DNA of 64,000 nucleotides from a virus: the IMG/VR virus record IMGVR_UViG_3300025570_000007. The stretch is one strand, 5' to 3'. The position numbers and the translations under genes were made by a program. This document shows, in pieces, positions 9,856-62,473 of the stretch. The notes under the pieces were generated by a model. It was given only the letters and a program-made list of their open reading frames with translations. It did no database searches and was not told where the DNA came from. Each line of letters starts with the position of its first letter. The stretch's first letter is position 1.

Positions 9856-9862
9856 ATAAATA
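9856..9862 (-). promoter_or_regulatory. Putative late promoter TATTTAT
   Basis: 13 nt upstream of ATG 9843. Confidence 0.6.
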
Positions 9863-9866
9863 GCAA

Positions 9867-10553
9867 TTAATCCCTAAAGGTTTTATAAACTTCTAGTAGT
9901 GGGGATACGATGGTATGTCTATGGTTTGCTAATAGAGTATATATCTTAAAGCCTTTAACATGCTCTTCTAATCTGAAAAGAAAACTAAAACCTGTATCTT
10001 TCTTATCTTTTAAATCTATCTGTGCCAAATCTCCACAGATTACCATCTTAGATCCCTTACCTAATCTGCCCAATACAGCTTCCATTTGGGAATGGGTAAC
10101 GTTTTGAGCTTCATCTACAATAATAAAAGCATCTGTAAATGTTCTTCCTCTTAGAAATGCGAAAGGAACTATTTCAATATTTTCCTTCTCTAATTCCTTA
10201 TCTACCTTTTCCTTACTATATAGCATGTATAGGTTGTGATAGATTGGAGCTAACCACGGATCCATTTTATCCTTTATATCTCCTGGTAAAAATCCTATAT
10301 CTTCTTTAGACACTGTTGGTCTTGTTATTATTACCTTCTTTACCTGTTTTGTAAATAACATATCTAATGCAACTTGTGCTGCTACTAAGGTTTTACCGCT
10401 TCCTGCCATCCCTTTCAGCACGGTTATAGGATTTGTAAGAATAGTAGCTTTTGCTTCTTTCTGTTCTTCGTTTAGTTGTAAGTTAAATTTAATTGGATTC
10501 TTCGGTCTGCGTTTTTGAGTAAATATCTCATCAGTGTGTGAATTACTTGCCAT
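9867..10553 (-). CDS. phoH: PhoH-like ATPase
   Basis: GMAGSGKT, ITRP, GFLPG, RGRTF, DEAQN, GDLAQID motifs. Confidence 0.95.
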   Translation of the reverse strand: MASNSHTDEIFTQKRRPKNPIKFNLQLNEEQKEAKATILTNPITVLKGMAGSGKTLVAAQVALDMLFTKQVKKVIITRPTVSKEDIGFLPGDIKDKMDPWLAPIYHNLYMLYSKEKVDKELEKENIEIVPFAFLRGRTFTDAFIIVDEAQNVTHSQMEAVLGRLGKGSKMVICGDLAQIDLKDKKDTGFSFLFRLEEHVKGFKIYTLLANHRHTIVSPLLEVYKTFRD

Positions 10554-14293: not shown

Positions 14294-15262
14294 CTGTTTA
14301 TCTAAGTAATCTTGGTAAGCTTCTGCTTCTTCTGGTCTCATTTCTCTATCTATCTCGATTGAGTCGTAATCAGTTTCGCCATATGATCCTGCAGCTATCC
14401 CTACATAATACTTACCTGTGCTTGTACTTTTTCCGTTCATCTCAACATCATACCCTTCTCTTTCTGATTCATCTTGATCCCAAGGATTATCTGTTCCTCC
14501 GTATGGAAGTACTCCGTCTTCTGTCCACTCTATGTCGTCTGGATGTTCTAATGTATTTTCTTTAACACTTCCTTTACGTTTTGCTAATTCTTTCTTAACA
14601 TCTTGTATATCTTGTTCATTTCCTTCGTACCTTGATAGATTAACAATCATATCAGCTAGTGCATCATTAGAATATCCTTCAAGACCTTCAATAACAATTA
14701 ATTTAATTACATCTTCCTTAAGTACTCTCTCTTTAGGTGTTAATCCTTCAAATAACGATTCATATGCCCATTGATGTAGTTGATCTGCATGCTGATCCTG
14801 TAATCTGTTTAATTGATCATCTGTTAACTCGGTTCCATCTTCAAAATTAGCTGTTGCTATGAAAGTATCGGTAAAATCAGGGTAATCCCTATCATCTACA
14901 CCGTCTAGTTGAACTGTTCCCATGTCTACCTTCTTTCCGTCAATAGTTCCTGCTGGTTCTACTGGTAAGTCTGGAGATATTTGGAATCCTTTAATACTTT
15001 TAACGCTATATGTGATTTCCCCTATTTTATCTTTTAGTAGAGCTAATGCTTCATCTTCGCTACCTGCTTCTACAGTGTATCCATAGTCTACTCCTGGTCT
15101 ACTCTCTACATTTACAACTATCTTATACTGTAAAGGCTCTTCTTTAATGACTCTATGGGTAACTAGCTTATTTTCGTTAGTATTATCCTCTGTTAAAATC
15201 TTTTTACCTTGTTCCTCCTTATAGTTAGTTAGAAACCTGTAATAGTTGAATCTTTCTCCCAT
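14279..15262 (-). CDS. Acidic modular protein, putative internal head polyprotein
   Basis: Modules separated by LTE, IKE, LFE, LKE, VKE; contains a DGVDDRDYPDF module. Confidence 0.65.
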   Translation of the reverse strand: MGERFNYYRFLTNYKEEQGKKILTEDNTNENKLVTHRVIKEEPLQYKIVVNVESRPGVDYGYTVEAGSEDEALALLKDKIGEITYSVKSIKGFQISPDLPVEPAGTIDGKKVDMGTVQLDGVDDRDYPDFTDTFIATANFEDGTELTDDQLNRLQDQHADQLHQWAYESLFEGLTPKERVLKEDVIKLIVIEGLEGYSNDALADMIVNLSRYEGNEQDIQDVKKELAKRKGSVKENTLEHPDDIEWTEDGVLPYGGTDNPWDQDESEREGYDVEMNGKSTSTGKYYVGIAAGSYGETDYDSIEIDREMRPEEAEAYQDYLDKQLQKR

Positions 15263-15840
15263 TATGCTCTTAATATGTCGTTAATTAGATCGTGTGCTTT
15301 ACAGTATCTGGTGCAAGCTTGCTTTCCTTCGTTTAAACTTACTGGATTCATAAATGCTCCATGTGTTGAAGGATTAGATACAAAGTCCCAGCATACTAAC
15401 TCAAAATCAGGCTGTACTTCTAATGTTCCTTCATTTGTTTGTTCTACTGATCCTGTTCCTCTTGATGAAATACCTATTGTATGACCTGCTTTTACAATCT
15501 CCTTTACAATATTTCCTGAAGGTGTATTAAGAAGTTCTATTCTTCCTTTCAGTTCATCACCATCCCACCATAATTCTTTGATTATATGTGATGCATTCTT
15601 TAAAGACACTACTGCTGATTCAGGATGATCTAACTCACCGTAAGCATTCCCGTTCTTTACAAACTCGTCTACATATTTTTGAGCTTCAGTTACTAAAATC
15701 TCTTTTTTATATACTCTCCCGTTCTGGTTTTTAGCTCCAGCTCTTTGTAATACACCTTCTACCTCAAAAACACCAGGTCTTTGCTTAGATTCCCTAAGGA
15801 TAGGTTTAAACGATGTTATATCTACAAGTAATTTTGTCAT
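15262..15840 (-). CDS. gp21: Prohead protease, T4 gp21-like
   Basis: NQNGRVY, GELDHP, GISSRGTGS, DFVSNPS motifs. Confidence 0.95.
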   Translation of the reverse strand: MTKLLVDITSFKPILRESKQRPGVFEVEGVLQRAGAKNQNGRVYKKEILVTEAQKYVDEFVKNGNAYGELDHPESAVVSLKNASHIIKELWWDGDELKGRIELLNTPSGNIVKEIVKAGHTIGISSRGTGSVEQTNEGTLEVQPDFELVCWDFVSNPSTHGAFMNPVSLNEGKQACTRYCKAHDLINDILRA

Positions 15841-18943: not shown

Positions 18944-18950
18944 ATAAATA
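18944..18950 (-). promoter_or_regulatory. Putative late promoter TATTTAT adjoining an 8-bp inverted repeat (18921..18944)
   Basis: TATAAGTA/TACTTATA inverted repeat; 43 nt upstream of the ATG. Confidence 0.6.
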
Positions 18951-18954
18951 GTAT

Positions 18955-22517: not shown

Positions 22518-22524
22518 ATAAATA
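22518..22524 (-). promoter_or_regulatory. Putative late promoter TATTTAT
   Basis: 22 nt upstream of the terminase ATG. Confidence 0.65.
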
Positions 22525-22555
22525 GCTACGGTGTATGGAAAGATATTTCTATTTT

Positions 22556-23188: not shown

Positions 23189-24706
23189 TTAAATTAATCC
23201 GCTTAAATCTAATGATATTCCTATAGCTTTTGCAGCTTTAACTAGGATAGGTTTCATCTGCTTTCTCTTCTCCTTGCTACCGTTTTTATAGATTTCTAGC
23301 ATTCTAATGTACTTCTGTCTTGGAGTTTCCTCGTCTTCGTTCTCATACATATCTTTACCGTACTCAACTTCTCTATCTGCTCTCTCTAAATCTTCCCAAG
23401 GTTCAAATGTATCTTTTGAATCATCTTTAGGAGCATCTTTATCAGTTTTATTAGCTTTTGCTTCTCTCACGTAACTTGTTAGAATCCTCTTAGCATCGTC
23501 AATAGCATTCTCTAATTCAGTATCGTCTAACTCGCTCCAGTACTGCCTATCGTCTCCGTCTAAGTACTGTCCTGATACTTTCTCCCATTCATTTTCTATC
23601 TCTCCTCCTATATCCCATATTTTACCTTCTAGTTTACCTATCTGTTCAACATACGGATTTACAACTCTGTCTGTATTTCCTGAGCCTTGCATTGGTCCGA
23701 ATTCTTTTATAGACTTTTTAATATGAGATGATCGGTAATGGTCTTTTAGGTATTCTATTATCTCTTCTGCTGCATCAGATTCACTTACACCGTCCTCAGA
23801 TGCTCTACTCTTTATAATGTTTACAATATCATCTCCATCTCCTCTACCTTCACTAACATCTTCTGTTTCGTTTAAAGCTTGAAAATGCTTTACCATATTG
23901 TTCTTTATAACGTCTCTATGTACTATTGCTTCTCCTGAAGGTTTTACACCTACTTCTCCTATCTCTTTGTCGAAGGAAAAATCTGCTAAATGTAGCGTAT
24001 CTTGGTCGATATGAAAAGCAAAATCATCTTCAAAATCATTCTTATACTTTATAAATATTTCAAATGAATTAGGCTCTACATGATGTATCTTAGCACTATC
24101 GATTTCTTCACCAACTTCTCTTAAGGCAGTCGCTAACGCTTTTCCTACCTCTCTTGCAATTGCCTGGGTCTCTTCTACACTAAACTCTATTCCTCGTTCT
24201 TCTTTAATCTCTTCTCCATCTGCTGTCTTAATACTCTCTACATCAGAATTATCTTTTAACTTATCTAATTCTTTCTTATCTGTATATTCAGCTGGTTGAC
24301 CGTTTATAAAAGCTGTTTTTTCTCCTTCTTTTATTGTAGACTTCTCTAGAAGAGCCTTAATATCACTGTATTTTTTCATTTTTGATTCTTTAATCATAAT
24401 GTACCTATTATCTTCTGTTTTTTCTGCTTCTCCGTTGGAAATAAAACTGTTCCATACTCTCTCTGCATCTTTTGTCATTGCTTGATCTGAGTATAATCCT
24501 TTTGTTAGTTTGTCGTTTGCTGCTCTGTAGAGTTCTTTTCCTATTCCTACTCCTCTATAGTCTTTAGATACTGTAACAGAGTCAACTTGGTAAGAATCTT
24601 TAAAAGGCTTTAACCTCAGTGCTCCTACTTTCTTATCGCCTACTACCGCAATAACTACCTTCTTTCCGTTAGCTTTTATAAAACGAAAGTCTATAGTTTC
24701 TTCCAC
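23189..24706 (-). CDS. GNAT acetyltransferase domain fused to an acidic modular protein
   Basis: VDSVTVSKDYRGVGIGKELY (acetyl-CoA motif A) and AERVW; GTG start; then IKE|SKMKKYSDIKALLE. Confidence 0.7.
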   Translation of the reverse strand: MEETIDFRFIKANGKKVVIAVVGDKKVGALRLKPFKDSYQVDSVTVSKDYRGVGIGKELYRAANDKLTKGLYSDQAMTKDAERVWNSFISNGEAEKTEDNRYIMIKESKMKKYSDIKALLEKSTIKEGEKTAFINGQPAEYTDKKELDKLKDNSDVESIKTADGEEIKEERGIEFSVEETQAIAREVGKALATALREVGEEIDSAKIHHVEPNSFEIFIKYKNDFEDDFAFHIDQDTLHLADFSFDKEIGEVGVKPSGEAIVHRDVIKNNMVKHFQALNETEDVSEGRGDGDDIVNIIKSRASEDGVSESDAAEEIIEYLKDHYRSSHIKKSIKEFGPMQGSGNTDRVVNPYVEQIGKLEGKIWDIGGEIENEWEKVSGQYLDGDDRQYWSELDDTELENAIDDAKRILTSYVREAKANKTDKDAPKDDSKDTFEPWEDLERADREVEYGKDMYENEDEETPRQKYIRMLEIYKNGSKEKRKQMKPILVKAAKAIGISLDLSGLI

Positions 24707-25185: not shown

Positions 25186-25192
25186 ATAAATA
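25186..25192 (-). promoter_or_regulatory. Putative late promoter TATTTAT
   Basis: 17 nt upstream of ATG 25169. Confidence 0.6.
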
Positions 25193-25199
25193 GCGGTGA

Positions 25200-25775
25200 T
25201 TACTTGAAATGTTGCTTTAGGTGAGTAGTGTATTCCTTAATTCCGTCCATTATCTTCTTTTTCTCGTTTGAATTAGAATTCCAATCCTCAATATCGCCCT
25301 GTTCTGTAACAAAGGTAGATTTTGCATTCACTAAGTCTAGTGCCCAAGCTTCTATATCATTAGCAAATGCGCTCATATTTCCTTGCATCATTCTCTCCTC
25401 ATATTGCTTATATAGCCCTGCTTTTCTTAACTTAGCTTCATATCCAATAGTGCAATCAAAACAGAATCCATGTATCTTATACATTTTTTTTGCTAAATGA
25501 TGCTTCATCGAACCTTTACACTTCGGACATGTTAGCGGAATACGTAAAGCTTTTTTTGCTGCATCTAGTTTAGTAATATTCTGCTTTAATCCGTTTTTTA
25601 TTGTCCACTGTTTTCCGCCTTCTTCCCAAAAATCTCCTTCTTTATGTCTTTCTGAACTTCTTTTGTATCCTGTTTGAGATTTTGTAGCTGCAGTAAAGTC
25701 TTTATTGACTATATTACGTACTCTTTCTATATCGGATTTCTTAAATTCTTTCTTTAGTAACGATTCTTTACTCAT
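25200..25775 (-). CDS. Zn-finger (CPKC...CFDC) hypothetical protein
   Basis: Two CxxC pairs; basic. Confidence 0.7.
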   Translation of the reverse strand: MSKESLLKKEFKKSDIERVRNIVNKDFTAATKSQTGYKRSSERHKEGDFWEEGGKQWTIKNGLKQNITKLDAAKKALRIPLTCPKCKGSMKHHLAKKMYKIHGFCFDCTIGYEAKLRKAGLYKQYEERMMQGNMSAFANDIEAWALDLVNAKSTFVTEQGDIEDWNSNSNEKKKIMDGIKEYTTHLKQHFK

Positions 25776-25920
25776 TATTCAACTTTATTTTATATTCATG
25801 ATAAGCTTCAGCAAATTTTAACATCACTTTCCACTTCCTTCCAGCACTTCTTCCTCCTGTGTATATCTCTCTAGGTTGTTTTGCTGACCAGTTACGGTAG
25901 TATTCTTCAACTTCACTCAT
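25768..25920 (-). CDS. Small hypothetical protein (50 aa)
   Basis: Manual translation MSEVEEYYRNWSAKQPREIYTGGRSAGRKWKVMLKFAEAYHEYKIKLNNE; overlaps both neighbours by 8 nt. Confidence 0.6.
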   Translation of the reverse strand: MSEVEEYYRNWSAKQPREIYTGGRSAGRKWKVMLKFAEAYHEYKIKLNNE

Positions 25921-26446
25921 ATCCTAGTGCTATTAATGTTTGTATTACTTCGTCTGAATCACCGTCTTTGCATCGTATTGCTATACCTCCTGCTTCTTGC
26001 CATTCTTTAATGTTAGACTTCTTATCGTCTATTAGGATTGCATTGGGAGATGCGTATCTCTGCTTGTCTTCCGAGTATGCGAATATAACCTTAGGTGGCG
26101 GTACTATATTATCCCTAACCCAGAGATTCTTACCTAACCTAGATGTGTCGTCTCTAGAAGGAGATGTTAATAAGTCCGGTGTATATTGTGCTAAGAATGA
26201 CCACAGTTTCTTACCTTGTGGCATCCAATTCATTTTTTGCCAAAACTGTATACCTATCTCTTGATCTATTAACTTCCAGAAAATAGGGTCTCCGTAATCC
26301 TCTAAAAATTCATCAGGAGTTTTTCCTGTGAAGTGTTCGAAACGTCCTTTAAAATCTGTCAATACCCCGTCCATGTCACAGTAGATCTTATACGGCGGTA
26401 TTTCTTTAATAGGGTATGCTTCTAATAAATCTACTAATTGTCCCAT
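25913..26446 (-). CDS. HAD-superfamily 5'(3')-deoxyribonucleotidase-like phosphatase
   Basis: IYCDMDGVLTDF, LTSP, K, ILIDD motifs; likely start MGQLVDLLE. Confidence 0.85.
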   Translation of the reverse strand: MGQLVDLLEAYPIKEIPPYKIYCDMDGVLTDFKGRFEHFTGKTPDEFLEDYGDPIFWKLIDQEIGIQFWQKMNWMPQGKKLWSFLAQYTPDLLTSPSRDDTSRLGKNLWVRDNIVPPPKVIFAYSEDKQRYASPNAILIDDKKSNIKEWQEAGGIAIRCKDGDSDEVIQTLIALGYE

Positions 26447-26790
26447 AACCATTTCCAATTTTCTTCTTCTTGTGATGCTTTCTTCTCGTACGGATGATCC
26501 GTATAGGAAAGTCCCATATTTGAATACCTAACATACCAGGTAGGTGACTGGAGGTAGTGTTGGTATTCATGTATTATTGTTCTAGCTAAATCCTCTTTTG
26601 ATTCTATGTTATTACAGTATATTGTGATTTCATTACCTGTAAAGCAATACTGTCCTTTAGCTGTATCTCCTTCATAGGCTAGTTCATACTCTAAGTAAGG
26701 AGTGCATGGTTGAAATTTAGAGTATCCGTAAAAGTTACATACTTCAGTAATATACTCTTTAGCTAATCTCCTTACAGTTCTTTTATCCAT
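26434..26790 (-). CDS. HExxH zincin-like metalloprotein
   Basis: TIIHEYQHYLQ...HPYEKKA. Confidence 0.7.
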   Translation of the reverse strand: MDKRTVRRLAKEYITEVCNFYGYSKFQPCTPYLEYELAYEGDTAKGQYCFTGNEITIYCNNIESKEDLARTIIHEYQHYLQSPTWYVRYSNMGLSYTDHPYEKKASQEEENWKWLWDN

Positions 26791-27433
26791 TGCTATTTTT
26801 TACCTTATCTTCCCATGTTCTAAAAGTCATGTTTCCTTTTAGGTATGCTTCTTTTTCTATCTCTTGAAGACTTTCATCTTCATTAACATTAGAAGTGTTT
26901 ACATTACCTAACCTATCTTCCATATTTTGCATATGGTGTATCATCTCATGAGTAAATGATCTCATAACATCTTTCGGATGCCTACCTTCTACATACAGAA
27001 CTACTTCCTTCTTAACAGGATCATAGTAAGCTGTTTTACCGAAAAAGTCTGCTGATTCTACCATATCTCTTCTTATCTTAATTTCCGGAAGAGGTTGTAT
27101 TTTCATACCTAAGTCTACCATGTGTTCTAAAATAGAGCCCATAAAAGGAGTAAAGCTGTATCCAGCACTGTCACTATGTTTTGCTAACTTAACAATTATT
27201 CTATCATTATTAAGTACAACTTCATATTCCTGTCCTAGTGAGTTATAAAGCTCTTTATATACCTGTGTGAGTTTTGCTCTGTCTTCTGAAGCTATTGGTG
27301 CAGCTGGAGATATGTGTGTTCCTGCTGATCCTTCTGTTGTTCTGACCTTCTTTTCGAAGAGATGTTCATCCCTTAAGGTATTATTAACAGCTTCATGCAT
27401 GTTCTTTGTTGCTTCGTCTAGTGCTGATTTCAT
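26783..27433 (-). CDS. HExxH zincin-like metalloprotein
   Basis: TAYYDP, GRHPKDVMRSFTHEMIHHMQ, EKEAY. Confidence 0.7.
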   Translation of the reverse strand: MKSALDEATKNMHEAVNNTLRDEHLFEKKVRTTEGSAGTHISPAAPIASEDRAKLTQVYKELYNSLGQEYEVVLNNDRIIVKLAKHSDSAGYSFTPFMGSILEHMVDLGMKIQPLPEIKIRRDMVESADFFGKTAYYDPVKKEVVLYVEGRHPKDVMRSFTHEMIHHMQNMEDRLGNVNTSNVNEDESLQEIEKEAYLKGNMTFRTWEDKVKNSNG

Positions 27434-27947
27434 ATTTAATTACATTTATTACATTCTCCTTATCTTCAGTCGATAATTGACTGGGTATCCATTCACCTTT
27501 TTCGAGGTACTCTGTTTGAGTTCTTATAGCAGAAGCAGAGAGTTTATTTTCTTCATCTCCTATCCTTGGAAGCTCTACTAATTCAACTTTCAAGTATTTC
27601 TCCTTATTCCTCTTACTTTTAAAATAAGCAAACTTTTTTAATTCCTCCGGTAATGAACCTGTTATAATTTTCGAATACGTATCGTAATATGCATCTACAT
27701 AATCGTAAATATCTTTTATAGGGGATCCTTTAGAAAGTACTATGTCTGTATTAGCTGGAAGATATTTTAAATATATTTTCCATATCTCTGCTGACTGCTT
27801 AGGAGTTATAGTTATTCCCTCTCTGACTACTGATCCTATAAATATAATTAGCTTATCAGAACTGTTTCCTAACATAACTGCATTTTCGAAGTGTGCTTTG
27901 TGGGGTGGTTTAAACCCTCCTGCGTATAGTGATACTGTTGGTTTCAT
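27393..27947 (-). CDS. HIGH-type (cytidyl/adenylyl) nucleotidyltransferase-like protein
   Basis: YAGGFKPPHKAH (HxGH variant) and LSASAIR (ISSS.IR-like) motifs. Confidence 0.75.
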   Translation of the reverse strand: MKPTVSLYAGGFKPPHKAHFENAVMLGNSSDKLIIFIGSVVREGITITPKQSAEIWKIYLKYLPANTDIVLSKGSPIKDIYDYVDAYYDTYSKIITGSLPEELKKFAYFKSKRNKEKYLKVELVELPRIGDEENKLSASAIRTQTEYLEKGEWIPSQLSTEDKENVINVIKYEISTRRSNKEHA

Positions 27948-28798
27948 AGTTCTCTAACTGCTTTTAATGCTTTTTCTTTATTATGTCCTTTATCTGTCCC
28001 TATCTCTCCTGATTTTACGGATACCATACTTTCGAAGATACCTTTTACTCTATTAAATGATCTTTCTGTGGTTAGTTTTCTACTAATGTCTGTCAGTAGT
28101 TCAGCAAAACTTCCTTCTATGTTGTAATGTGTAAGTAATTTTTCGACTAATCTCCAGTCGGTTGTTGACCATATATGCTCTTTTTCAAGAGTATGAAAAT
28201 CTCTATCCAACTTTACTTTTCTTACCTCTAATCTACTAGAGCTAAGGTTAAATTCATACTCTTCATCCCATCCCATAAGTGCAGGAAATTCTTCTATCCC
28301 TAATCGTTCTGCTACTTCGTAAAAATCTTCTTCTATTAAAACTGTTTTAACTAGTCCTAATACTAACCCCTGTTTTTCTGCAGGTAAATTTAAGAAGTTG
28401 TACTTAAATAAACTCTCTTCTTCTGTTAGTGCTATTATATTATCTACCTGGATGCATTCTAAAGCTCCTCTTATTGGAAAAAGAACTGTGATTATCTCCC
28501 CTGAATTGTAATACTTTCTTCCTAGGTATTTACTGCTTCTGAAAGGTATTATAATATGTTCAGGTAAGGAGTTGGTGACTTTTAGTATTTTTTTCTTTAC
28601 TTGTTTCTTATCTGTTCCTTCAATATATACTATTATATCTAAATCTCCATAGACTATTTTCTTTCCTGCAACTACGCTTCCTGACAGTCTTGCATGTACA
28701 AATCCAGGTACTTTCTTTAAGACTGTATCTATGTATGATTGAAATGTATCTTGTACATCTCTCTTATGTATCATCGAACCTCCTGCTACTCCGCTCAT
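27944..28798 (-). CDS. Pol-beta superfamily nucleotidyltransferase
   Basis: LSGS...GDLDII and IQVD catalytic aspartates. Confidence 0.7.
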   Translation of the reverse strand: MSGVAGGSMIHKRDVQDTFQSYIDTVLKKVPGFVHARLSGSVVAGKKIVYGDLDIIVYIEGTDKKQVKKKILKVTNSLPEHIIIPFRSSKYLGRKYYNSGEIITVLFPIRGALECIQVDNIIALTEEESLFKYNFLNLPAEKQGLVLGLVKTVLIEEDFYEVAERLGIEEFPALMGWDEEYEFNLSSSRLEVRKVKLDRDFHTLEKEHIWSTTDWRLVEKLLTHYNIEGSFAELLTDISRKLTTERSFNRVKGIFESMVSVKSGEIGTDKGHNKEKALKAVREL

Positions 28799-29706
28799 AC
28801 CTTATAAGGTGTTAATTTTGAATCTTCAGGTAAAAATTTTCCTGTCAAGTTTAAAGCTTCTTGTTTGAGTTTCCAATACATTTGACAATCGTCAGGTATG
28901 TCTACTCTTGTACTATCTAATACCTTTAGGTACAGGTCTAACACACCTTCTAAATTAAACTGATCCATGTATGTTTTAATTAACATCATTATATCATGGT
29001 AATTTCTCAGTGTACTTAGTCTAAACTCAAGTCCGTAAAGTGCAGTTAGAAATTCTACTGCTTTTTTAGGTGTATCCGCCACTATTCGCTGAGTTATTTT
29101 ATTCTTAACTCCGTAATTGTGGGAGAAGGTATAGCCTTTATTTGAAAATAGTGCGATAATTAACTGTGTACGGTGTAGCCCTTTTACATTGCCCTCGTAA
29201 CTGTCTGAATGGTATGCGAACTTTAACCAGTCTATATTTCCTATACTTATATCAACTTGTACATTCTCGGGTAACCAGCAGTTATGGTATGCACCAAATT
29301 GTGGTGCTACTAAGAATAATGTTCCTGCTGATGATCCTTTTGCATTTGCTACAAGATCCGTATTAGAGTCATTTAATTTATCTGCAAGTGCTACAATTAT
29401 AGATTTTTTACGAAGTTGTTCATCTGTAGCAGTTCTAGCTCGCTTCTTAAAAACTGTAAAAAGCTTATTAATTATATCGTGATCTAGATCCCAGTCTGCT
29501 AAATCAGTAAATGCATATTCAGATAATGCTAAATCGATATCTCCTGAAAATTCTTTCTTTCCTGCAGAACCTATTAATTCTAATCCGCCTATATGTCTTC
29601 TTGCTTTCGGGAAGACCGTATAAAGTTGTTCGAAGAATAGATCTAAAGTAGGTTGTACGTTTTCTCGTTTAATCCTTGAAGTTTCACTAAAAACATTTCC
29701 TCCCAT
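28795..29706 (-). CDS. Pol-beta superfamily nucleotidyltransferase (MGGN type)
   Basis: IGSAGKKEFSGDIDLA and VQVDI motifs, KGLHR. Confidence 0.75.
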   Translation of the reverse strand: MGGNVFSETSRIKRENVQPTLDLFFEQLYTVFPKARRHIGGLELIGSAGKKEFSGDIDLALSEYAFTDLADWDLDHDIINKLFTVFKKRARTATDEQLRKKSIIVALADKLNDSNTDLVANAKGSSAGTLFLVAPQFGAYHNCWLPENVQVDISIGNIDWLKFAYHSDSYEGNVKGLHRTQLIIALFSNKGYTFSHNYGVKNKITQRIVADTPKKAVEFLTALYGLEFRLSTLRNYHDIMMLIKTYMDQFNLEGVLDLYLKVLDSTRVDIPDDCQMYWKLKQEALNLTGKFLPEDSKLTPYKV

Positions 29707-29730
29707 TCTATAACCTTTTTTAATTAATCA

Positions 29731-29761
29731 TAAAGATAAGAAACAATCTTTAAGTCTACAA
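29731..29761 (-). promoter_or_regulatory. Bacteroidota-type sigma promoter for the NTase operon
   Basis: TTG-N20-TATCTTTA. Confidence 0.7.
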
Positions 29762-30538
29762 CTTTAAAACTGTCGGATATTCCTTAAAAATAGGCTTTAC
29801 TTCAGGGTTATCTAATTTATATAGTTTATATATTGTTTGAAATAAATCAAAATTATGGTCTATCTCGTCAACTATCTTAACTTGCCACCCTTTTCCTTGG
29901 TACACTCCTTTCTTTTTCGATTCACTCCTTGTTAAGGCTTTAAGCCAAAGTATACCTGTTCTTTCTATCTTCGTACCTGTTGCTTCTTCTATAGATTTTG
30001 CATAAGCTGAAAGTTGTAGGTTGTAGGCTCGGTGTAAGTTGTTAGAAGTCTTTAAATCTAGTAGCCACACTTCTCCATCCATTTTCACTACTAAATCAGC
30101 TGTTCCTGCATACTTATGTGTATCTGAGTATGTAAATTGTTCTGAGGATATTAGTTCAGGTTTATGTGTTGTCCAAAATTCATGGAACTTTATAATCATT
30201 GCCCATACTACTTGAGAATACTTAGCATTACCGTAGTCATCCAACCAGGTAACTTCTTCTCCTTTTACTAATGCTTCAGCTGCTTCATGTACTTGCGTAC
30301 CTTCTCTACCTGCTTTTGCCAGTATTAAATCAGCATTATGTCCTACATCTTTCAACCAGTTGTCAAAAAACTTATTCTTAGGCATGTACTGTAGAACTGT
30401 TGTGACTGAAGGGTAGTATACTCCTTCTGATCTTCTATATACTCTCCTATCTAGGAAGGTAATTTGTTTTAATTTAGGTTTGAATTCTAACCTCTCTTTT
30501 TTAGCTTCTTTTAAGATACTGTTACCTTCTCTAATCAT
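29756..30538 (-). CDS. PD-(D/E)XK exonuclease (Cas4/RecB-like, phage type)
   Basis: YPSVTTVL, GTQVH, AGTADL, LLDLKTS, QLSAY motifs. Confidence 0.85.
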   Translation of the reverse strand: MIREGNSILKEAKKERLEFKPKLKQITFLDRRVYRRSEGVYYPSVTTVLQYMPKNKFFDNWLKDVGHNADLILAKAGREGTQVHEAAEALVKGEEVTWLDDYGNAKYSQVVWAMIIKFHEFWTTHKPELISSEQFTYSDTHKYAGTADLVVKMDGEVWLLDLKTSNNLHRAYNLQLSAYAKSIEEATGTKIERTGILWLKALTRSESKKKGVYQGKGWQVKIVDEIDHNFDLFQTIYKLYKLDNPEVKPIFKEYPTVLKL

Positions 30539-31706: not shown

Positions 31707-32024
31707 TTAATCGAATCCGCTGTTTCCTTTTTCTCTTTGTTTACCTAGCCATGCTTTTTTTCCCTGCTTATACTTATCTCTTTCTTGCTTAAAAGCAGGT
31801 ATTTTAAATACATGCATCCAAGGTTGTGTTCTATCTATAATTACCTCTAAGCTTAGGTCTTTATCTTGCTTCCACCTCTCTAGATCTCCCTCATCGTTTA
31901 TCTGTGTTAGTGAATCTCGTTTTGGATCAGCTAAACTATCCCCTCTCTTAACGTTAACGCCAAACTTTAAATCCGATAAAGTAGTCCGTGTTCCTTGTTC
32001 TTGTAATATTTGTAGTAGTTTCAT
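31707..32024 (-). CDS. Small protein with MKLLQILQE tag
   Basis: ORF track; coupled to neighbour. Confidence 0.65.
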   Translation of the reverse strand: MKLLQILQEQGTRTTLSDLKFGVNVKRGDSLADPKRDSLTQINDEGDLERWKQDKDLSLEVIIDRTQPWMHVFKIPAFKQERDKYKQGKKAWLGKQREKGNSGFD

Positions 32025-32512
32025 TTAAAGTGTTTAAAAAAATCTTTTCTAAAGAATTTACCGAGTATATTATCGTTAATATAGTTGTCCCTATTCTCTA
32101 ATACCTCTTTTATAAATAGGTGCTTACATTCAAAATAAGTAAGTAGCTTTTTAGTTGCTACATATTCTATAATCTCTCTCTTGAAATCCTCTTCTGTACC
32201 GTTCTTTACTAGCTCCATAATCTCCTTCTGAGATCCGAAGTATGTTTTCCAGTCTGATTCTTTTATTACTTTTTTCTTAAGAGGTGTCTTTCCTCTAAGT
32301 TTAAGTATCTTTCTCTCCTCTTTAAGGGCTTCTAAAGCTTTTTTACCTAGTCTTACATTTCTCTCAAAGTATAGAACTTTTCTCCCTATGTATTTTTTAC
32401 CTGACGGTATATGAGTAACTTCGTATATGAACCCGTAAGTACCTTCTGGCATGTCTGAGATTTCAGTTACAGGTTTTGTTTTATATGTCCACAGTGGTTT
32501 TGTGCTTATCAT
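32021..32512 (-). CDS. GIY-YIG family nuclease
   Basis: GFIY...KYIGRK, WKTYFGS, FKREI, conserved E and YINDNI. Confidence 0.8.
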   Translation of the reverse strand: MISTKPLWTYKTKPVTEISDMPEGTYGFIYEVTHIPSGKKYIGRKVLYFERNVRLGKKALEALKEERKILKLRGKTPLKKKVIKESDWKTYFGSQKEIMELVKNGTEEDFKREIIEYVATKKLLTYFECKHLFIKEVLENRDNYINDNILGKFFRKDFFKHFK

Positions 32513-33410: not shown

Positions 33411-34220
33411 TTAGTAGAAATATTCATAAAACCATTCGTAATGTTTTTTAATTAGCATACAGGTATCGTAACCTAAGACCTCTATTGCGGTACTCTCTAC
33501 AGGACGTACTTCAGTTCTTATTACATGATCCCCGTAAACTCCGTAAACTGCATCATCTTCTTGTGTGATTTGGGCTACGTTATTGAGATCGTGGTTAAAG
33601 TAGGGTGTGTCTATAAACTTATAATACTTCTGTAACACTTCTTCTGGGTTACTCACTAGATCTTCAAATGTAATAAAGTGAACTTTACTGTCAATCTTCT
33701 GCTTTACCATCTCTTTTAGCCTCTCAAAAGCCATCCCTATTGGAGGGGTTTGTGCCCATATGTCTACTCTCTTTGCTGTAGTGGTTCCTTTCATTTCTGA
33801 CCAGTTTATTACTCCCTGATCTAAGTGTTCACTCTTTCTAAAGTTCTTCTCCATTGAACACATAATATCGACAGGATCTCTCAATAGGCATACTATTTTA
33901 GGGTCCGGGTAAAAGGAGTTAAGAAAGTTATAATGTATTCCCCACCCTCTACTTTTATCTAATATGTAGGGTTTATCTGTAATTGCATTAAAAAATCCTT
34001 CCATTCCTTCTTTACAGAAGTTAAGGTACCCCTTAGTCATTAGATTTACGTCTTGTGCTTTAAATTCAGGGGAGTTTGAGAAATTCTGTCTTGAAGCATA
34101 AACCAACTCTAGTACCCCCGAAGTAGGGGTTACGTAGAAGTCTGGGTTCTGCCCTATTATGTTTTGAAAAAGGGTAGAACCTGCTCTAGGAAGAGATGAT
34201 TGAAAAAATACTTTTTGCAT
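33411..34220 (-). CDS. Sulfotransferase
   Basis: SLPRAGSTL (5'-PSB loop), DKSRGW, LLRDP (3'-PB), FEDLVSNP. Confidence 0.85.
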   Translation of the reverse strand: MQKVFFQSSLPRAGSTLFQNIIGQNPDFYVTPTSGVLELVYASRQNFSNSPEFKAQDVNLMTKGYLNFCKEGMEGFFNAITDKPYILDKSRGWGIHYNFLNSFYPDPKIVCLLRDPVDIMCSMEKNFRKSEHLDQGVINWSEMKGTTTAKRVDIWAQTPPIGMAFERLKEMVKQKIDSKVHFITFEDLVSNPEEVLQKYYKFIDTPYFNHDLNNVAQITQEDDAVYGVYGDHVIRTEVRPVESTAIEVLGYDTCMLIKKHYEWFYEYFY

Positions 34221-38705: not shown

Positions 38706-38712
38706 ATAAATA
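38706..38712 (-). promoter_or_regulatory. Putative late promoter TATTTAT
   Basis: 14 nt upstream of ATG 38692. Confidence 0.6.
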
Positions 38713-38715
38713 GTG

Positions 38716-52666: not shown

Positions 52667-52673
52667 ATAAATA
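52667..52673 (-). promoter_or_regulatory. Putative late promoter TATTTAT
   Basis: 8 nt upstream of ATG 52659. Confidence 0.55.
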
Positions 52674-52679
52674 GTTGTG

Positions 52680-55039: not shown

Positions 55040-55046
55040 ATAAATA
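55040..55046 (-). promoter_or_regulatory. Putative late promoter TATTTAT
   Basis: 17 nt upstream of ATG 55023. Confidence 0.6.
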
Positions 55047-55048
55047 GA

Positions 55049-58221: not shown

Positions 58222-58252
58222 TAAATATACGATACTAATTTAATACTAACAA
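58222..58252 (-). promoter_or_regulatory. Bacteroidota-type sigma promoter
   Basis: TTG-N20-TATATTTA. Confidence 0.7.
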
Positions 58253-58666
58253 CTTTTCTCCGTAAAGAAGTTTAGTAAACTTTAAGACTAGTCCACATTT
58301 TTCATACTCTTCTATATTCTCATAATACAAGCGAAGAATGTCTAAAGCATCGTGACATTCCGAGATATCGTATGTCTCTCCTACTTTATACTTAACTTCG
58401 ATAGAATCTATATCTATCCTACTTAAGTAGCTATAGAGACGGTTAAAGTATGTATACATTATTTTATGTCTAACCTCTTTGTACTTCTCCGGATATCGCT
58501 GCTTGTACATAGCATCCAGTATAGTGAAGTTATTTACTCCTGTAGTCACCATCCCCATTAGTACGAATGGATTTGAAAGAACCTCTGATACTCCGTGCTC
58601 TTGGTAGACTTCTTCATCCCCTTTCTCGAAGATAGAGAATAAGTCGTTAGGGTTTATTTTTTCCAT
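58235..58666 (-). CDS. Hypothetical protein with C-terminal UVR-like motif
   Basis: YYENIEEYEKC; preceded by a late box. Confidence 0.65.
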   Translation of the reverse strand: MEKINPNDLFSIFEKGDEEVYQEHGVSEVLSNPFVLMGMVTTGVNNFTILDAMYKQRYPEKYKEVRHKIMYTYFNRLYSYLSRIDIDSIEVKYKVGETYDISECHDALDILRLYYENIEEYEKCGLVLKFTKLLYGEKLLVLN

Positions 58667-58670
58667 TTTT

Positions 58671-58701
58671 TTGCTATACTGATAAATAGTTCATATATTA
58701 C
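58671..58701 (+). promoter_or_regulatory. Bacteroidota-type sigma promoter (+) enclosing a divergent late box (58682..58688, -)
   Basis: TTG-N20-TATATTAC upstream of ATG 58723. Confidence 0.6.
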
Positions 58702-58722
58702 TGTAAACATAAAGAATATAGT

Positions 58723-59061
58723 ATGCATGATAAACTTGAAGAAATTATAACACTTTTAAACTCGTTAAAGATTAGTCAAAAATCTACAGACTGGATTGAA
58801 GATCTTCCTTCTGAGATATACGATAAGTATTTTGACGATATTGTAGATATAAGAGATTCAGGATTAAATATAGATAAACACCGTTGGTATGAATACGCTA
58901 CTTGCGTTTTTGAATTACCAGAACAGGTATCTGACAAGTATATAGGAGTGAGACATATTAATGATTTATTCTCTGAGAGTATGACTTGCGATGATGTAGA
59001 ACATACCTTAGTGTTTTTCGAAATGGTACCGGTTCGCACAACTACGTATGTACAAAGATAA
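58723..59061 (+). CDS. Hypothetical protein
   Basis: DKHRWYE motif; first gene of the + strand island. Confidence 0.7.
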   Translation: MHDKLEEIITLLNSLKISQKSTDWIEDLPSEIYDKYFDDIVDIRDSGLNIDKHRWYEYATCVFELPEQVSDKYIGVRHINDLFSESMTCDDVEHTLVFFEMVPVRTTTYVQR

Positions 59062-59064
59062 CAT

Positions 59065-59169
59065 ATGATGGTGAATTTAGCAGTACCTATAGCATACTTA
59101 CTTGTAGCTGTATTAATGGTAATCTTCTTTATAGACGATGAAAGAGATAATCACGATAAGAAAAAATAA
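59065..59169 (+). CDS. Small membrane peptide (34 aa)
   Basis: MMVNLAVPIAYLLVAVLMVIFFIDDERDNHDKKK. Confidence 0.5.
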   Translation: MMVNLAVPIAYLLVAVLMVIFFIDDERDNHDKKK

Positions 59170-59171
59170 TA

Positions 59172-59411
59172 ATGGGACCAATAAAATTTAAAGAATGTAA
59201 TGTGGAGTTTGCAAAAGACCAACCACCCTATAGTTCTATGCATGCATTTAAAGATGTTGACGGGGTAGTTACTAGTTGCTGGAAATTGTCATGGAAAGAG
59301 CGTTTACACGTACTATTCCACGGTAATATCTGGAAGTAAGAAATGACATTTAATAAGCCTTTAACTCCCTCATACATGTCTCCTTACCGGGATGAGATAT
59401 TTGAAAAGTGA
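59172..59411 (+). pseudogene. Phage hypothetical gene interrupted by an in-frame TAA at 59337
   Basis: MGPIKFKECNVEFAKDQPPY...SCWKLSWKERLHVLFHGNIWK*EMTFNKPLTPSYMSPYRDEIFEK; final TGA overlaps the next ATG. Confidence 0.65.
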
Positions 59412-59698
59412 TGACAGATAACATAAAACCGCTTATAGAGATAGATCCAGGCTGTGAATGTGACGATAAATGTCTATGTTATGATGGAGGATCAGAGCAA
59501 ATACTACAGGTCTATGACATCCCATTAAACCTCCTCCCTAAAGAAGATGCTCCAACGATAAGCTTTCATGATAATGTTAATAAAGAAGTTGGACGATTTA
59601 ATATAGTAGACGGAGTACTAACCTTTTCCGGATCAGTAGATGCATCAGCACAAATATTCATAGACGAAGTTCTTAGCCAATGGCAAAATCAACACTAA
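59411..59698 (+). CDS. Hypothetical protein
   Basis: ORF track; C-terminal LTFSGSVDASAQIF motif. Confidence 0.6.
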   Translation: MTDNIKPLIEIDPGCECDDKCLCYDGGSEQILQVYDIPLNLLPKEDAPTISFHDNVNKEVGRFNIVDGVLTFSGSVDASAQIFIDEVLSQWQNQH

Positions 59699-59853
59699 TA
59701 GACACAAAGAAAGCAACTCATTTAGAATTACTAGAAGAGTATGAGAGGGTTATGGACATGTGGGGTAAGTACTCATGTGACTCCTTTGGATTCTACCTCG
59801 GTGCCATTCACGATGCAATTGTTGATAAAGGAGGCTGGCCTGGGAAAGAATAG
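59680..59853 (+). CDS. Hypothetical protein (57 aa)
   Basis: Manual translation MAKSTLIDTKKATHLELLEEYERVMDMWGKYSCDSFGFYLGAIHDAIVDKGGWPGKE. Confidence 0.55.
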   Translation: MAKSTLIDTKKATHLELLEEYERVMDMWGKYSCDSFGFYLGAIHDAIVDKGGWPGKE

Positions 59854-59856
59854 GTG

Positions 59857-60039
59857 TTAGAGACTGTTAAAGAGATCGGACCAGTACTTATGTCCTTGAG
59901 GAGATTCACACCAGAGAAAAACACCGCTTAGTGTCGAAGACAGTCCATAAGAATTAAAATCTAAATCTTCAGTAGCATTACCTATAGCCTCAGTTCTATA
60001 AGGTTCTTCAAGTTGCTCTAAGTGTTGTCGATGTGTCAT
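59857..60039 (-). CDS. Hypothetical protein
   Basis: L.EPYR.EA...F.W.ESPQGHKYW motif; likely start MTHRQ. Confidence 0.6.
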   Translation of the reverse strand: MTHRQHLEQLEEPYRTEAIGNATEDLDFNSYGLSSTLSGVFLWCESPQGHKYWSDLFNSL

Positions 60040-60111
60040 AGTAAAATTAGTTTTAGGTGTAGTGTAAGATAACAAGGGCACGCCGCGAGTTATTTGAATA
60101 AATTATAATTA

Positions 60112-60258
60112 TTAGTAAGTAGGGTATGCTGTTCTCATTGCTTCTTCAATAGCAGCTATAGTAGCTTCGTACCTAAGGCTTTCCATCTGTTTATTCGACA
60201 CATATCCATGAGGAATGCATTGAGATAAATGTTTCTTATAGAGTTTCTTTGCGTCCAT
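60112..60258 (-). CDS. Hypothetical protein (48 aa)
   Basis: Manual translation MDAKKLYKKHLSQ...TAYPTY; downstream of the promoter at 60312. Confidence 0.5.
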   Translation of the reverse strand: MDAKKLYKKHLSQCIPHGYVSNKQMESLRYEATIAAIEEAMRTAYPTY

Positions 60259-60311
60259 ATGTAGTATTATGTTTTTATATATTTAACAACGTCTTCACTA
60301 ACTGTCTGTCC

Positions 60312-60342
60312 TAAAGATAAGGAAAATTCTCCACATTCACAA
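60312..60342 (-). promoter_or_regulatory. Bacteroidota-type sigma promoter
   Basis: TTG-N20-TATCTTTA. Confidence 0.65.
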
Positions 60343-60409
60343 AACATATCATGAGTAACATTCTTAAAACATCCCTTACAGTGCCTATTCTCTTTGTCCA
60401 TAACATTTT

Positions 60410-60694
60410 TTACAAGGGGGAAAAGGTTCTCGCGCATATTCCACGATAAGTATAGTCTTCCCTAACCCGGTTAATCCTCTTTTGAACTAAATCAGTGACT
60501 AGTACACGATCAGCCTTTTGATCACGCCCGTCATTGTAACCTTTTCTGTAGAGTTCCTTCAACCCTTCCTCGGTAAGACTTTGGGAAAGGGCCCAATTAA
60601 CCCCGGCCAGGAAATGCTCTTGTGCTACATCCTGGGTAAGGTGTATGTGTTTGCTATATGTTCTAGCAGCCTTTATTACATCTTTATCTTTCAT
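60410..60694 (-). CDS. Hypothetical protein
   Basis: AARTY...FLAGVNWA motif typical of Bacteroidota phage small proteins. Confidence 0.6.
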   Translation of the reverse strand: MKDKDVIKAARTYSKHIHLTQDVAQEHFLAGVNWALSQSLTEEGLKELYRKGYNDGRDQKADRVLVTDLVQKRINRVREDYTYRGICARTFSPL

Positions 60695-60943
60695 TCTGGA
60701 TACTATTGGTTAATATTGTTTTTTATTGGCAAAGTCTTTGAGGATTTTGATTATCACTCGAATATAGGCTATCCCGCTTTTAAAGCCTGTAATGCTCTAC
60801 TTAGTGTCATTTAGTTTGTTTTGAATAAAATCTAATGTTCTTTCCATTCCGTCAACAAATCCATCACACTCTTCTTGGGTATGTTCTTGTTTTATGTACT
60901 TTACCAATAACTCTACTTGTTGTAATTTACTTACTTTCATAAT

Positions 60944-61141
60944 CTACTTTCTTAAATATTCCTGTATCCACTCCATACCCTTCTTATAAGCCTCTTCTGA
61001 TGTTTCAAAAGGAGCTAATACATGCTCTGTAATCCAAGATGCTTTACCTTTTCTTATTATACCTACTATCCAATAATCTTGGTAGCTTGCCATTATAGTT
61101 ACGTTTAACCACCAACCGTCTGGAATATCATTTGTATTCAT
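60944..61141 (-). CDS. Hypothetical protein
   Basis: ORF track. Confidence 0.6.
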   Translation of the reverse strand: MNTNDIPDGWWLNVTIMASYQDYWIVGIIRKGKASWITEHVLAPFETSEEAYKKGMEWIQEYLRK

Positions 61142-61374
61142 AATTTCTCTATTTCCTGTTTAACGTCTTCCCATTCTTTAATCCAAAGATTCATATTAAA
61201 CTTATGTTCTATTTCTTTTTTTACTTGATAGTTTCTCTATTTTTTTTTTGAAAGTCTCGTATTTCAATCCACATTTCGTGAGCATCGGTTTCGTTAAATT
61301 GAAACCCTAAATTTATAGCTGTTTGCCATATTAATTTTATTTCTGCTTTCGTTTCGTTTTTGATACTCATTTTT

Positions 61375-61596: not shown

Positions 61597-61630
61597 AATT
61601 TAAAATTTAAGTAGCTGTATTGCTATGGTG

Positions 61631-61659
61631 TAAAGATAAACCTTTTTTTGGATATACAA
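61631..61659 (-). promoter_or_regulatory. Bacteroidota-type promoter with atypical 18-nt spacer
   Basis: TTG-N18-TATCTTTA. Confidence 0.5.
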
Positions 61660-61688
61660 TACTTTTTTATCTCTTTTGCTGTCATAAC

Positions 61689-62449: not shown

Positions 62450-62473
62450 AACTCTTATTGTTTTAATTATACC

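Follow-up and report, generated by a model that had tools for sequence, protein, structure and literature searches.

A conserved phage module of PolX-like nucleotidyltransferases, an NMNAT-like domain and zincins, present in split form in a T4-like phage of the Flavobacterium type

The window, the whole 64,000-nucleotide stretch of viral DNA that was analysed (IMG/VR record IMGVR_UViG_3300025570_000007), belongs to a T4-like relative of Flavobacterium phage immuto and, as judged from sequence, carries the split form of a conserved enzyme module that is encoded as polyproteins in most relatives. The conserved order is NT1, a putative nucleotidyltransferase; NT2, a second one mostly joined to a predicted NMNAT-like domain and a zincin resembling Wss1, SPRTN and IrrE; a small zincin; a predicted dNMP nucleotidase; and a Zn-ribbon protein. 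The module is widespread and uncharacterised and, in keeping with the original prediction, no described system of such composition was found.

In the window the module occupies 25200-29706 on the minus strand as eight overlapping, co-directional ORFs, all of them at the places and with the motifs predicted. NT1 (28795-29706; 303 aa; GS..GDID..QVD) is followed by NT2 (27944-28798; 284 aa; GS..GDLD..QVD), a HIGH-type transferase (HIGH; 27393-27947; 184 aa; GGFKPPHKAH) and two HExxH proteins, HEMIH (26783-27433; 216 aa) and HEYQH (26434-26790; 118 aa). Next are a HAD phosphatase, at 25913-26458 when read from a TTG start or 177 aa long from the ATG chosen by gene callers, a 50-aa ORF (25768-25920) and a CxxC..CxxC (Zn-ribbon) protein (25200-25775; 191 aa). 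Tight coupling of these genes had been proposed, and all seven junctions do overlap, by 4, 4, 41, 8, 13-25, 8 and 8 nt from NT1 to the Zn-ribbon gene.

The idea of a fixed eight-gene operon gave way to that of a module of five to six genes whose split is lineage-specific. The order primase-exo-NT1-NT2-HIGH-HEMIH-(HEYQH)-HAD-ZnF is kept in about 60-80 loci, and NT2, HIGH and HEMIH form a single ORF, encoding one polyprotein, in 60 related loci. Other fusions join NT1 to NT2 (P0172 and P0196) or HIGH to NT1 and NT2 (P0149 and P0151). Three frame changes set the window apart from its fused relatives and might be put down to sequencing or assembly error, or to decay of a polyprotein gene, but this is extremely improbable. 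The identical split gene set is found in two independent Logan assemblies from separate runs, which excludes a one-off assembly error as the source of the frame changes; the ATG of each piece lies exactly at the frame change, with typical ATGA or ATGnnTAA overlaps; the catalytic motifs are all intact; and stand-alone NT2 genes are common, with 56 of 150 cluster representatives being 320 aa or shorter and one Atlas cluster having 465 members.

The eight-gene stretch is one putative early transcription unit of this T4-like, Flavobacterium-type phage. A host-type early promoter (Bacteroidetes -33/-7-like; TTG-N19-TATCTTTA) lies at 29731..29761 on the minus strand and precedes the NT1 start codon by 24 nt. 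Scanning for E. coli-type sigma-70 promoters was not by itself enough to reveal this site; the promoter, part of the original prediction, is upheld by a GTTG..TAT(C/A)TTTAGG element that about 40 distinct relatives keep in front of NT1 and by its match to seven promoter-like sites of the same class, which precede small ORFs of early type in the window's 58-64 kb region. Further upstream than the early promoter, at 29786..29793 (minus strand), is a degenerate copy, CTATTTTT, of the late-gene motif CTATTTAT, which is intact at the corresponding place in most relatives. Among the minus-strand copies of CTATTTAT, 8/12 have a start codon 7-42 nt downstream, in most cases that of a structural gene. 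The copy at 25186..25193, also on the minus strand, opens the next, late, transcription unit and thus bounds the module on its downstream side.

Two Pol-beta nucleotidyltransferases had been predicted, and the Pol-beta fold stands, with the catalytic acids intact in both; the generic MNT, CCA or CD-NTase type does not, since the palm plus thumb is like that of family X polymerases. NT1 adds a C-terminal helical domain to its palm and thumb, with residues GS46-47, D56, D58 and D152 invariant (AF2 model, pLDDT 90.9). In VIA-align family X enzymes take all of its top 9 places (Z 8.4-9.3, 163-183 residues aligned), the best being ASFV PolX (Z 9.3), where 163 residues align along the whole 174-residue enzyme, and Foldseek, suggested as a check on the ORFs, returned pol lambda and pol beta (E 1e-5). 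NT2 is a predicted distant paralog of NT1 (hhalign E 1.5e-4 across 206 columns) and likewise appears PolX-like. Its structure neighbours in the Atlas belong to PF14791/PF14792, the PolX palm and thumb families, and three NT2-family members pass the PF14792 cut-off; NT1 and NT2 of the window both stay below the Pfam threshold. The NT1 family comprises more than 1200 metagenomic proteins and the NT2 family 208 clusters at 50% identity, NT2 being the N-terminal domain of a polyprotein in most relatives.

With ASFV Pol X and the palm and thumb of pol beta/lambda, NT1 and NT2 share the GS..GDxD..D acids and a helix-helix-sheet thumb. ASFV Pol X is likewise viral and without the 8-kDa and fingers domains; in NT1 and NT2 the HhH and 8-kDa DNA-binding domains are absent. 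The likeness, drawn from sequence and models, is distant (13-19% identity, TM-scores of only about 0.4) and, unlike family X polymerases, NT1 and NT2 have an extra helical palm insert, a C-terminal helical domain and a near-neutral pI (6.7, typical DNA polymerases being basic), and they come as a pair of paralogs with NMNAT-like and zincin domains fused to them. Adjoining paralogous Pol-beta enzymes could also be CC-/A-adding-like or RlaP-like and repair RNA or tRNA 3' ends against host anticodon or 3'-end nucleases, in the way that RlaP and CCA enzymes serve RNA repair in jumbo phages (PMC7824862); a segment inserted in one polyprotein (L021) is weakly similar to RegB. Such a role is quite improbable, given that the window has no tRNA genes, immuto no Rnl2-type RNA ligase and the two proteins no Pfam match to the RlaP or CCA families, and that TUTase/PAP structures score below PolX and cover the core only (TUTases in VIA-align, Z 7 or less over about 105 residues).

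HIGH, rightly recognised as a HIGH-type transferase, is a predicted NMNAT-like adenylyltransferase. Its GGFKPPHxxH and C-terminal SxSAIR motifs correspond to the HxxH and SxxxxR signatures of archaeal and NadM/NadR-type NMNATs, and the best PDB matches of its profile are, at borderline E-values, archaeal NMNAT 1f9a (E 0.0024) and NadM 2qjt (E 0.012); the homologous domain in locus L003 matches PF01467 at 1.2e-10. The AAA_28 family includes the NadR ribosylnicotinamide kinase, and an AAA_28 kinase is encoded three genes downstream in L003-type loci and also in immuto. The NAD+ reconstitution pathways NARP1-3 are established in phages (10.1101/2024.02.11.579819; PMC13464706), and with AAA_28 kinases in the same phages the module might serve a comparable counter-defence, in which the NMNAT-like domain and the kinase rebuild NAD+ after host NADase defences, NT1 and NT2 act on small molecules (e.g. 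making or capping nucleotide signals) and the HAD protein trims nucleotides. The early promoter and the neutral pI of NT1 and NT2 would suit that role, which is nevertheless rather unlikely. Nampt and PnuC both went undetected in immuto and in a relative with a complete genome, which leaves both NARP2 and NARP3 incomplete; HIGH is fused to PolX-like and zincin domains, as against the Nudix or kinase domains of known NAD systems; the nucleotidyltransferases, with palm plus thumb, are closer to PolX than to CD-NTases or other small-molecule enzymes; and the zincins are left unexplained.

The domain junctions in relatives carry [LIVM]-x-E, which matches the motif at which T4 gp21-type head proteases cut. 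It stands directly before NT1 and NT2 domains that lie inside an ORF and not at its start, exactly at the conserved N-terminus, in 46/48 cases (roughly 2% expected), the sequences being related and the cases not fully independent; internal GGN[VI]F is preceded by it in 32/32 cases and internal SGVAGG in 14/16. With the motif so placed, Met removal or cleavage after Glu would give the same mature N-termini, GGNVF and SGVAGG. In linker 1 the L-x-E is invariant across 39 polyproteins, and the NT2 stop and HIGH start of the window lie within 2 residues of this site; in linker 2 E|G(S/A)SGT is found. The candidate enzyme for these sites is the T4 gp21-type prohead protease of the window (15262..15840, minus strand; PF03420 Peptidase_S77 5.1e-33, 114.7 bits; phrog_207 1e-51), and a relative with a complete genome likewise encodes an S77 protease; alternatively, the zincins of the module itself could do the processing. 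The writer and eraser activities that had been envisaged found no support; what the junctions suggest is that the enzymes are themselves processed by proteolysis.

Most of the 80 loci come from one viral lineage with conserved synteny and Glu-rich linkers are common, as would fit a set of genes with no common pathway, their adjacency being kept gene order, the fusions neutral accidents and L-x-E a matter of linker composition. That is very improbable, as NT1 and NT2(-HIGH) adjoin in a second lineage, where the surrounding genes differ, fusions recur in several domain orders and the motif is placed far more often than expected.

T4 gp21 cuts Alt behind the Glu of ITE and LTE sites and takes off targeting peptides of 10-20 residues (PMC5694885). 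Relatives of the module share with Alt and the T4 internal proteins an [LI]-x-E directly before the mature N-terminus and, in one lineage, comparable N-terminal peptides of 13-20 residues; an S77 protease in the genome and enzyme (not structural) cargo are further points in common with Alt. At one locus (L063) a propeptide-bearing NT1 is directly behind a TATAAATA late-type promoter, and in L003-type loci a propeptide NT1 is in an operon with small proteins bearing similar N-terminal L-x-E peptides. Unlike Alt, the relatives are predicted multi-enzyme polyproteins with internal sites, and the window version has an early promoter and no N-terminal propeptide on NT1, NT2 or HIGH; virion packaging is not indicated for the window's own phage. 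The N-terminal targeting peptide is also absent from immuto-like polyproteins.

T4 Alt ADP-ribosylates RNA polymerase, and Pol-beta-fold protein AMPylases exist (GlnE, DrrA). With these precedents, the neutral pI and the Alt-like gp21-type sites and propeptides, the products could be effectors of host takeover, either ejected or early, with NT1 and NT2 nucleotidylylating host proteins and the zincins cutting host targets. This is improbable: there is no significant GlnE/DrrA similarity (sole match E 0.9), the PolX-typical thumb subdomain is present and no target is known.

The reading preferred here, a split polyprotein module with gp21-type processing in relatives, early or ejected delivery, DNA end processing and NAD supply, has as a whole an even chance of being right. 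The gp21-type head protease would cut the polyproteins in relatives, and in lineages with propeptides and late promoters the enzymes would, like T4 Alt, reside inside the head and be ejected together with the DNA. The window phage would make the same enzymes as separate proteins from its host-type early promoter, and either route would supply the set at the very start of infection, when it is presumably required. The favoured biochemical role combines NAD supply with the processing of DNA ends or gaps. In its two most tentative steps, NT1 and NT2 may extend or fill nucleic-acid 3' ends of incoming or replicating phage DNA, and HIGH may convert NMN to NAD+ in support of the host NAD-dependent ligase, the latter because Pfam models applied to one relative, immuto, detected no DNA ligase in its genome, whether NAD- or ATP-type.

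The two HExxH proteins, predicted to be zincin-like, are minimal zincins nearest Wss1, SPRTN and IrrE; in contrast to the known families, they have no significant sequence match to Pfam SprT-like or M78. HEMIH (AF2 model, pLDDT 73) has a disordered linker (about residues 1-45) and a zincin catalytic core (about residues 91-216) with the HExxH core fold of Wss1, SPRTN (SprT) and IrrE/PprI. All 50 of its top 50 VIA matches are zincins, at Z-scores that are only middling (Wss1 8.5, PprI 7.8, SPRTN 7.8), and its Foldseek matches, though weak, are again zincins; the HEMIH motif is identical to that of SPRTN. HEYQH matches phrog_87, a metallo-protease (E 8.5e-4), and its homologs have weak SprT-like, DUF3920 and M78 matches. 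HEYQH is a gene of its own in 16 relatives, and polyproteins of about 900 aa have a different HExxH-containing C-terminal domain in its place, similarity between HEYQH and that domain of immuto being undetectable.

The HAD phosphatase, also foreseen, has DMDGV, matches phrog_2643 (E 5.5e-25), is kept in 56 related loci and is a predicted 5'(3')-deoxyribonucleotidase-like enzyme. The 50-aa ORF is present in the window as described but is not conserved, with no tblastn match in 81 related loci, where HAD and ZnF abut directly; it is the least certain gene, doubtful or lineage-specific. The Zn-ribbon protein, basic (pI 9.5) and found in the Atlas in viral hypothetical clusters only, is the conserved last gene of the module in 57 related loci.

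The eight minus-strand ORFs of the original prediction are present, with the motifs listed for them, at 25200-29706. They encode two nucleotidyltransferases (NT1 and NT2), a HIGH-motif protein (HIGH), two zincin-like proteins named after their HExxH motifs (HEMIH and HEYQH), a HAD protein, a 50-aa product and a Zn-ribbon protein. Every junction does overlap, by 4, 4, 41, 8, 13-25, 8 and 8 nt between successive ORFs, and consists of ATGA or of an ATG with a stop shortly after. Exactly the same split gene set was found in two further assemblies from separate sequencing runs. The phage is T4-like, with a Gp23-type capsid protein, T4-type portal and terminase, and baseplate and fibre genes; a PhoH-like ATPase gene (9867-10553) comes immediately after that of the major capsid protein, inside the head-gene block. 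The 4.6-kb stretch of the module aligns over 54% with the DNA of a cultured relative, Flavobacterium phage vB_FspM_immuto (immuto), at ~68% identity. Searches of the window's proteins against Pfam and PHROGs gave almost no matches, the HAD enzyme excepted, and a tRNA scan of the window found no tRNA genes.

The 50-nt gap upstream of NT1 is TTG-N19-TATCTTTA (29761-29731), and a GTTG..TAT(C/A)TTTAGG element occupies the same place upstream of NT1 in ~40 distinct relatives. It has the form of seven near-identical TTG-N19-TAT(A/C)TTTAGG elements on the minus strand at 58222-63763, most of them followed by a small ORF after ~15-35 nt, which from their sequence are likely to be host-RNA-polymerase early promoters of the Bacteroidetes -33/-7 type. 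The host-type promoter proposed before NT1 is borne out by this conservation and by the likeness to the 58-64 kb sites; it is absent from an E. coli-type promoter scan and was recognised via the Bacteroidetes-type pattern and its conservation. A second motif, CTATTTAT, has 12 minus-strand copies in the window, eight of which precede a start codon by 7-42 nt (9856-9863, 18944-18951, 22518-22525, 25186-25193, 38706-38713, 52667-52674, 55040-55047 and 58682-58689). The genes behind these eight copies are mostly structural (head, terminase, fibre), and this lineage of phages probably uses the motif as its late promoter, a counterpart to TATAAATA of T4. The copy at 25186-25193 opens the next unit and so delimits the module, which is a real early transcription unit. 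In most relatives an intact CTATTTAT is found upstream of the NT1 early promoter, where the window has a degenerate CTATTTTT. Beyond the module, the late unit includes, just upstream of terminase, the gene for a very acidic 505-aa protein (23189-24706) that has a GNAT acetyltransferase domain at its N-terminus.

For comparison, 80 IMG/VR loci with NT1 were collected. The gene order is almost universal among them: primase, PD-(D/E)XK exonuclease, NT1, NT2, HIGH, HEMIH, (HEYQH), HAD and Zn-ribbon protein. The expected co-occurrence is evident in that NT2 is adjacent to NT1 in 79 of the 81 IMG/VR loci checked. The eight-gene composition holds in relatives as far as its core order is concerned; the core itself is usually fused, and the 50-aa ORF, for which no conservation was found in related loci, has no counterpart. 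NT2, HIGH and HEMIH form a single ORF of ~680-1200 aa in 60 loci, the immuto version being gp088, annotated as NMNAT; NT1 of immuto is gp089. The sole other split polyprotein among the 80 loci, at L066:9909-12423, is broken between HIGH and HEMIH, a split independent of that in the window.

A second lineage (L003, L032, L081, L028, L056 and L063) has a different gene context, and there NT1 adjoins a fused NT2-HIGH, except in L063, where NT1 stands alone. At a distance of two genes downstream of NT2-HIGH, this lineage (L003:11781-13627, also L032 and L081) has QueD-like, radical-SAM QueE-like and AAA_28 kinase genes; the QueD- and QueE-like neighbours link the neighbourhood of the module to 7-deazaguanine synthesis genes. 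The AAA_28 kinase is also present in immuto, and a comparison with the PDB gave no informative match for it.

An exhaustive profile search recovered 208 NT2 clusters at 50% identity with many architectures, namely NT2 alone, NT2-HIGH, NT2-HIGH-zincin(s), NT1-NT2, X-NT1-NT2 and HIGH-NT1-NT2. NT2 alone accounts for 56 of the 150 listed cluster representatives (<=320 aa); the motif-based architecture count is crude, with 62 of the 150 lacking any motif, and was used for lengths only. The fusion of NT1, NT2 and HIGH in several orders suggests a functional link among the three and argues against the need for a single fixed geometry. The NT1 family comprises >1200 metagenomic proteins of ~55% mutual identity, all unnamed. 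Among cultured phages, tblastn matched immuto only, plus one weak match in Sinorhizobium phage Phosso.

That both nucleotidyltransferases have a Pol-beta fold is supported by their GS motif and three catalytic Asp residues, which are kept in both families: G46, S47, D56, D58 and D152 are invariant in 27 NT1 sequences, and G40, S41, D52, D54 and D119 in 24 NT2 sequences. The two proteins are distant paralogs (hhalign E 1.5e-4, 206 columns). In an exhaustive structural search with the AF2 model of NT1 (pLDDT 90.9), the nine best matches were all PolX enzymes, with Z 9.3 over 163 aligned residues for ASFV Pol X and Z 9.2 for pol beta 142-335, against Z <=7 across only ~105 residues for TUTases and other Pol-beta-fold enzymes; Foldseek matched the model to pol lambda and pol beta at E 1e-5. 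A thumb is present, as residues 9-236 of the model align with ASFV Pol X over its full length and with pol beta 142-335. Among the Atlas structure neighbours of NT2 are clusters that carry the palm and thumb families of PolX, the thumb being PF14791. Three NT2-family members reach 25.5-27.5 bits for PF14792 (DNA_pol_B_palm, cut-off 25), which neither NT1 nor NT2 of the window matches. PDB sequence searches with single NT1 or the immuto polyprotein as query gave no matches, and PDB profile searches with the NT1, NT2 and HEMIH profiles gave none that were significant. The alignments of NT1 begin at the palm, so that the HhH fingers and the 8-kDa lyase domain are missing; since they are also missing from ASFV Pol X, identity as a minimal PolX stays compatible. 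The conserved residues and the structural comparisons mark NT1 and NT2 as PolX-like domains. To our knowledge, essentially no phage polymerase of a family-X-like kind has been described. A prediction of the NT1-NT2 complex scored 0.00, which speaks neither for nor against binding.

The HxxH and SxxxxR signatures are present in HIGH, where GGFKPPH16xxH19, K135, S137, A138 and R142 are invariant in 28 sequences. Its profile matched NMNATs best in the PDB, archaeal NMNAT and NadM first, at a borderline E of 0.0024-0.2, and the homologous domain of L003 matches PF01467 (cut-off 21) with 42.2 bits (E 1.2e-10), a family to which the HIGH protein of the window gave no match. These profile comparisons identify HIGH as an NMNAT-like domain. 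A zincin core with invariant H162, E163 and H166 makes up the latter half of HEMIH, whose 50 best structural matches are all zincins, the nearest being Wss1, PprI and SPRTN. HEYQH is a small zincin-like protein in which no similarity to the C-terminal HExxH domain of immuto was detected. For the SprT-like and M78 Pfam families, only sub-threshold matches were obtained. The HAD protein has a DMDGV motif and matches phrog_2643, the phage 5'-3' deoxyribonucleotidases (E 5.5e-25), with Pfam NT5C sub-threshold only. The Zn-ribbon protein is conserved in relatives.

The domain junctions carry a recurrent motif. NT1 proteins start with M-GGNVF and NT2 proteins with M-SGVAGG; where the domain is not initial, Glu takes the place of the Met, and the second residue ahead of this Glu is Leu, Ile, Val or Met. 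In relatives, [LIVM]-x-E precedes NT1 in 32 of 32 non-initial cases, 25 of them N-terminal extensions of 13-20 residues, and NT2 in 14 of 16; the combined count of 46/48 concerns relatives, NT1 and NT2 of the window being Met-initiated. L-x-E is found in linker 1, between NT2 and HIGH, in all 39 distinct polyproteins, and in the window the stop of NT2 and the start of HIGH lie <=2 residues from this site. In linker 2, Glu is followed by G(S/A)SGT. The occurrence of this protease-type motif at domain starts is strongly non-random. Some polyproteins (L021:9909-13538, L011 and L069:980-4216) have an extra domain of ~110-190 residues inserted in linker 2, which in L021 has weak similarity to the T4 RegB endoribonuclease (E 0.0012).

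The prohead protease of T4, gp21, cuts after Glu at [L/I]-x-E and removes capsid-targeting peptides of 10-20 residues, and T4 Alt is trimmed by it at ITE and LTE (PMC5694885). An S77 prohead protease is encoded in the window (15262-15840; PF03420, 114.7 bits) and in a complete relative genome; the contigs of the second lineage screened for it are 20-41% fragments. In that lineage the propeptide of NT1 resembles the N-termini of small neighbour proteins, which also end in L-x-E. The NT1 gene of L063 sits behind a TATAAATA late-type promoter, and L003-type operons are preceded by a CTTAAATA element.

We infer that the polyproteins of relatives would be processed by the head protease, which in the lineage with propeptide and late promoter would imply packaging in the head and ejection. 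The main alternative is that the module's own zincins are the processing enzymes of the polyproteins; this agrees poorly with the second lineage, in which no zincin was found within 9 kb. Under head-protease processing, the mature proteins would be identical in the window, where separate early genes encode them and Met removal would yield the same Gly or Ser N-termini; the early-gene and the processed, packaged routes would both make the enzymes available as infection begins. We propose, tentatively and with more doubt than conviction, that a large family of phage polyproteins is cut by the prohead protease and delivered alongside the genome. Its two PolX-like polymerases and its NAD-synthesising enzyme would form a DNA-repair and NAD kit carried by the virion, which the window would have turned into separate early genes. 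The proposed kit is comparable to Pol X packaged in ASFV particles, and T4 Alt is a precedent for enzyme delivery via gp21-type processing. The recurring fusions and exact protease-type junctions provide a concrete model, open to testing, of how enzymes are delivered when infection begins, and a handle on a gene block of unknown function widespread in aquatic phages.

Action of NT1 and NT2 on nucleic-acid 3' ends is suggested by the predicted PolX palm-plus-thumb fold; further points in its favour are the adjoining primase and exonuclease genes and the nearest zincin folds, which are those of DNA-dependent zincins. Against it stand the neutral pI of both proteins and the missing DNA-binding domains. 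Pfam models detected neither a DNA ligase, NAD- or ATP-type, nor an Rnl2-type RNA ligase in immuto (NC_055915.1, a 160-kb T4-like genome, reached via locus L001). The partner in NARP2 is Nampt and NARP3 consists of a PnuC transporter with a NadR-like enzyme (PMC13464706). In the immuto genome no Nampt (PF04095) and no PnuC (PF04973) were detected, the latter also being undetected in a complete relative, and only the AAA_28 kinase is present, which places the NMNAT-like domain of immuto outside any complete NARP2 or NARP3 set. The domain might serve the host ligase by providing NAD+, or it might offset a depletion of NAD; if active, it would represent one more architecture for phage NAD+ reconstitution.

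The original prediction knew of no described system of such composition, and we likewise found no paper on this family, nor any mentioning DUF6267, an Atlas structure neighbour; a survey of jumbo phages reports other nucleotidyltransferases, RlaP and CCA enzymes (PMC7824862). The parts of the module all come from known superfamilies, and it is widespread and experimentally tractable. Given these superfamilies and the T4 Alt delivery precedent, we count it as a variation on known kinds of system.

Several small minus-strand ORFs, with starts at 25169, 31705, 32024, 5181, 49925, 52659 and 18050, have N-terminal peptides of the MKLxxx[IL]x(x)E type, which resemble T4 capsid-targeting sequences; their products are candidates for head-internal proteins. 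In the interval that separates the tail-fibre genes from the primase, the window also encodes a SegE-like GIY-YIG homing endonuclease (32021-32512) and a sulfotransferase-family protein (33411-34220).
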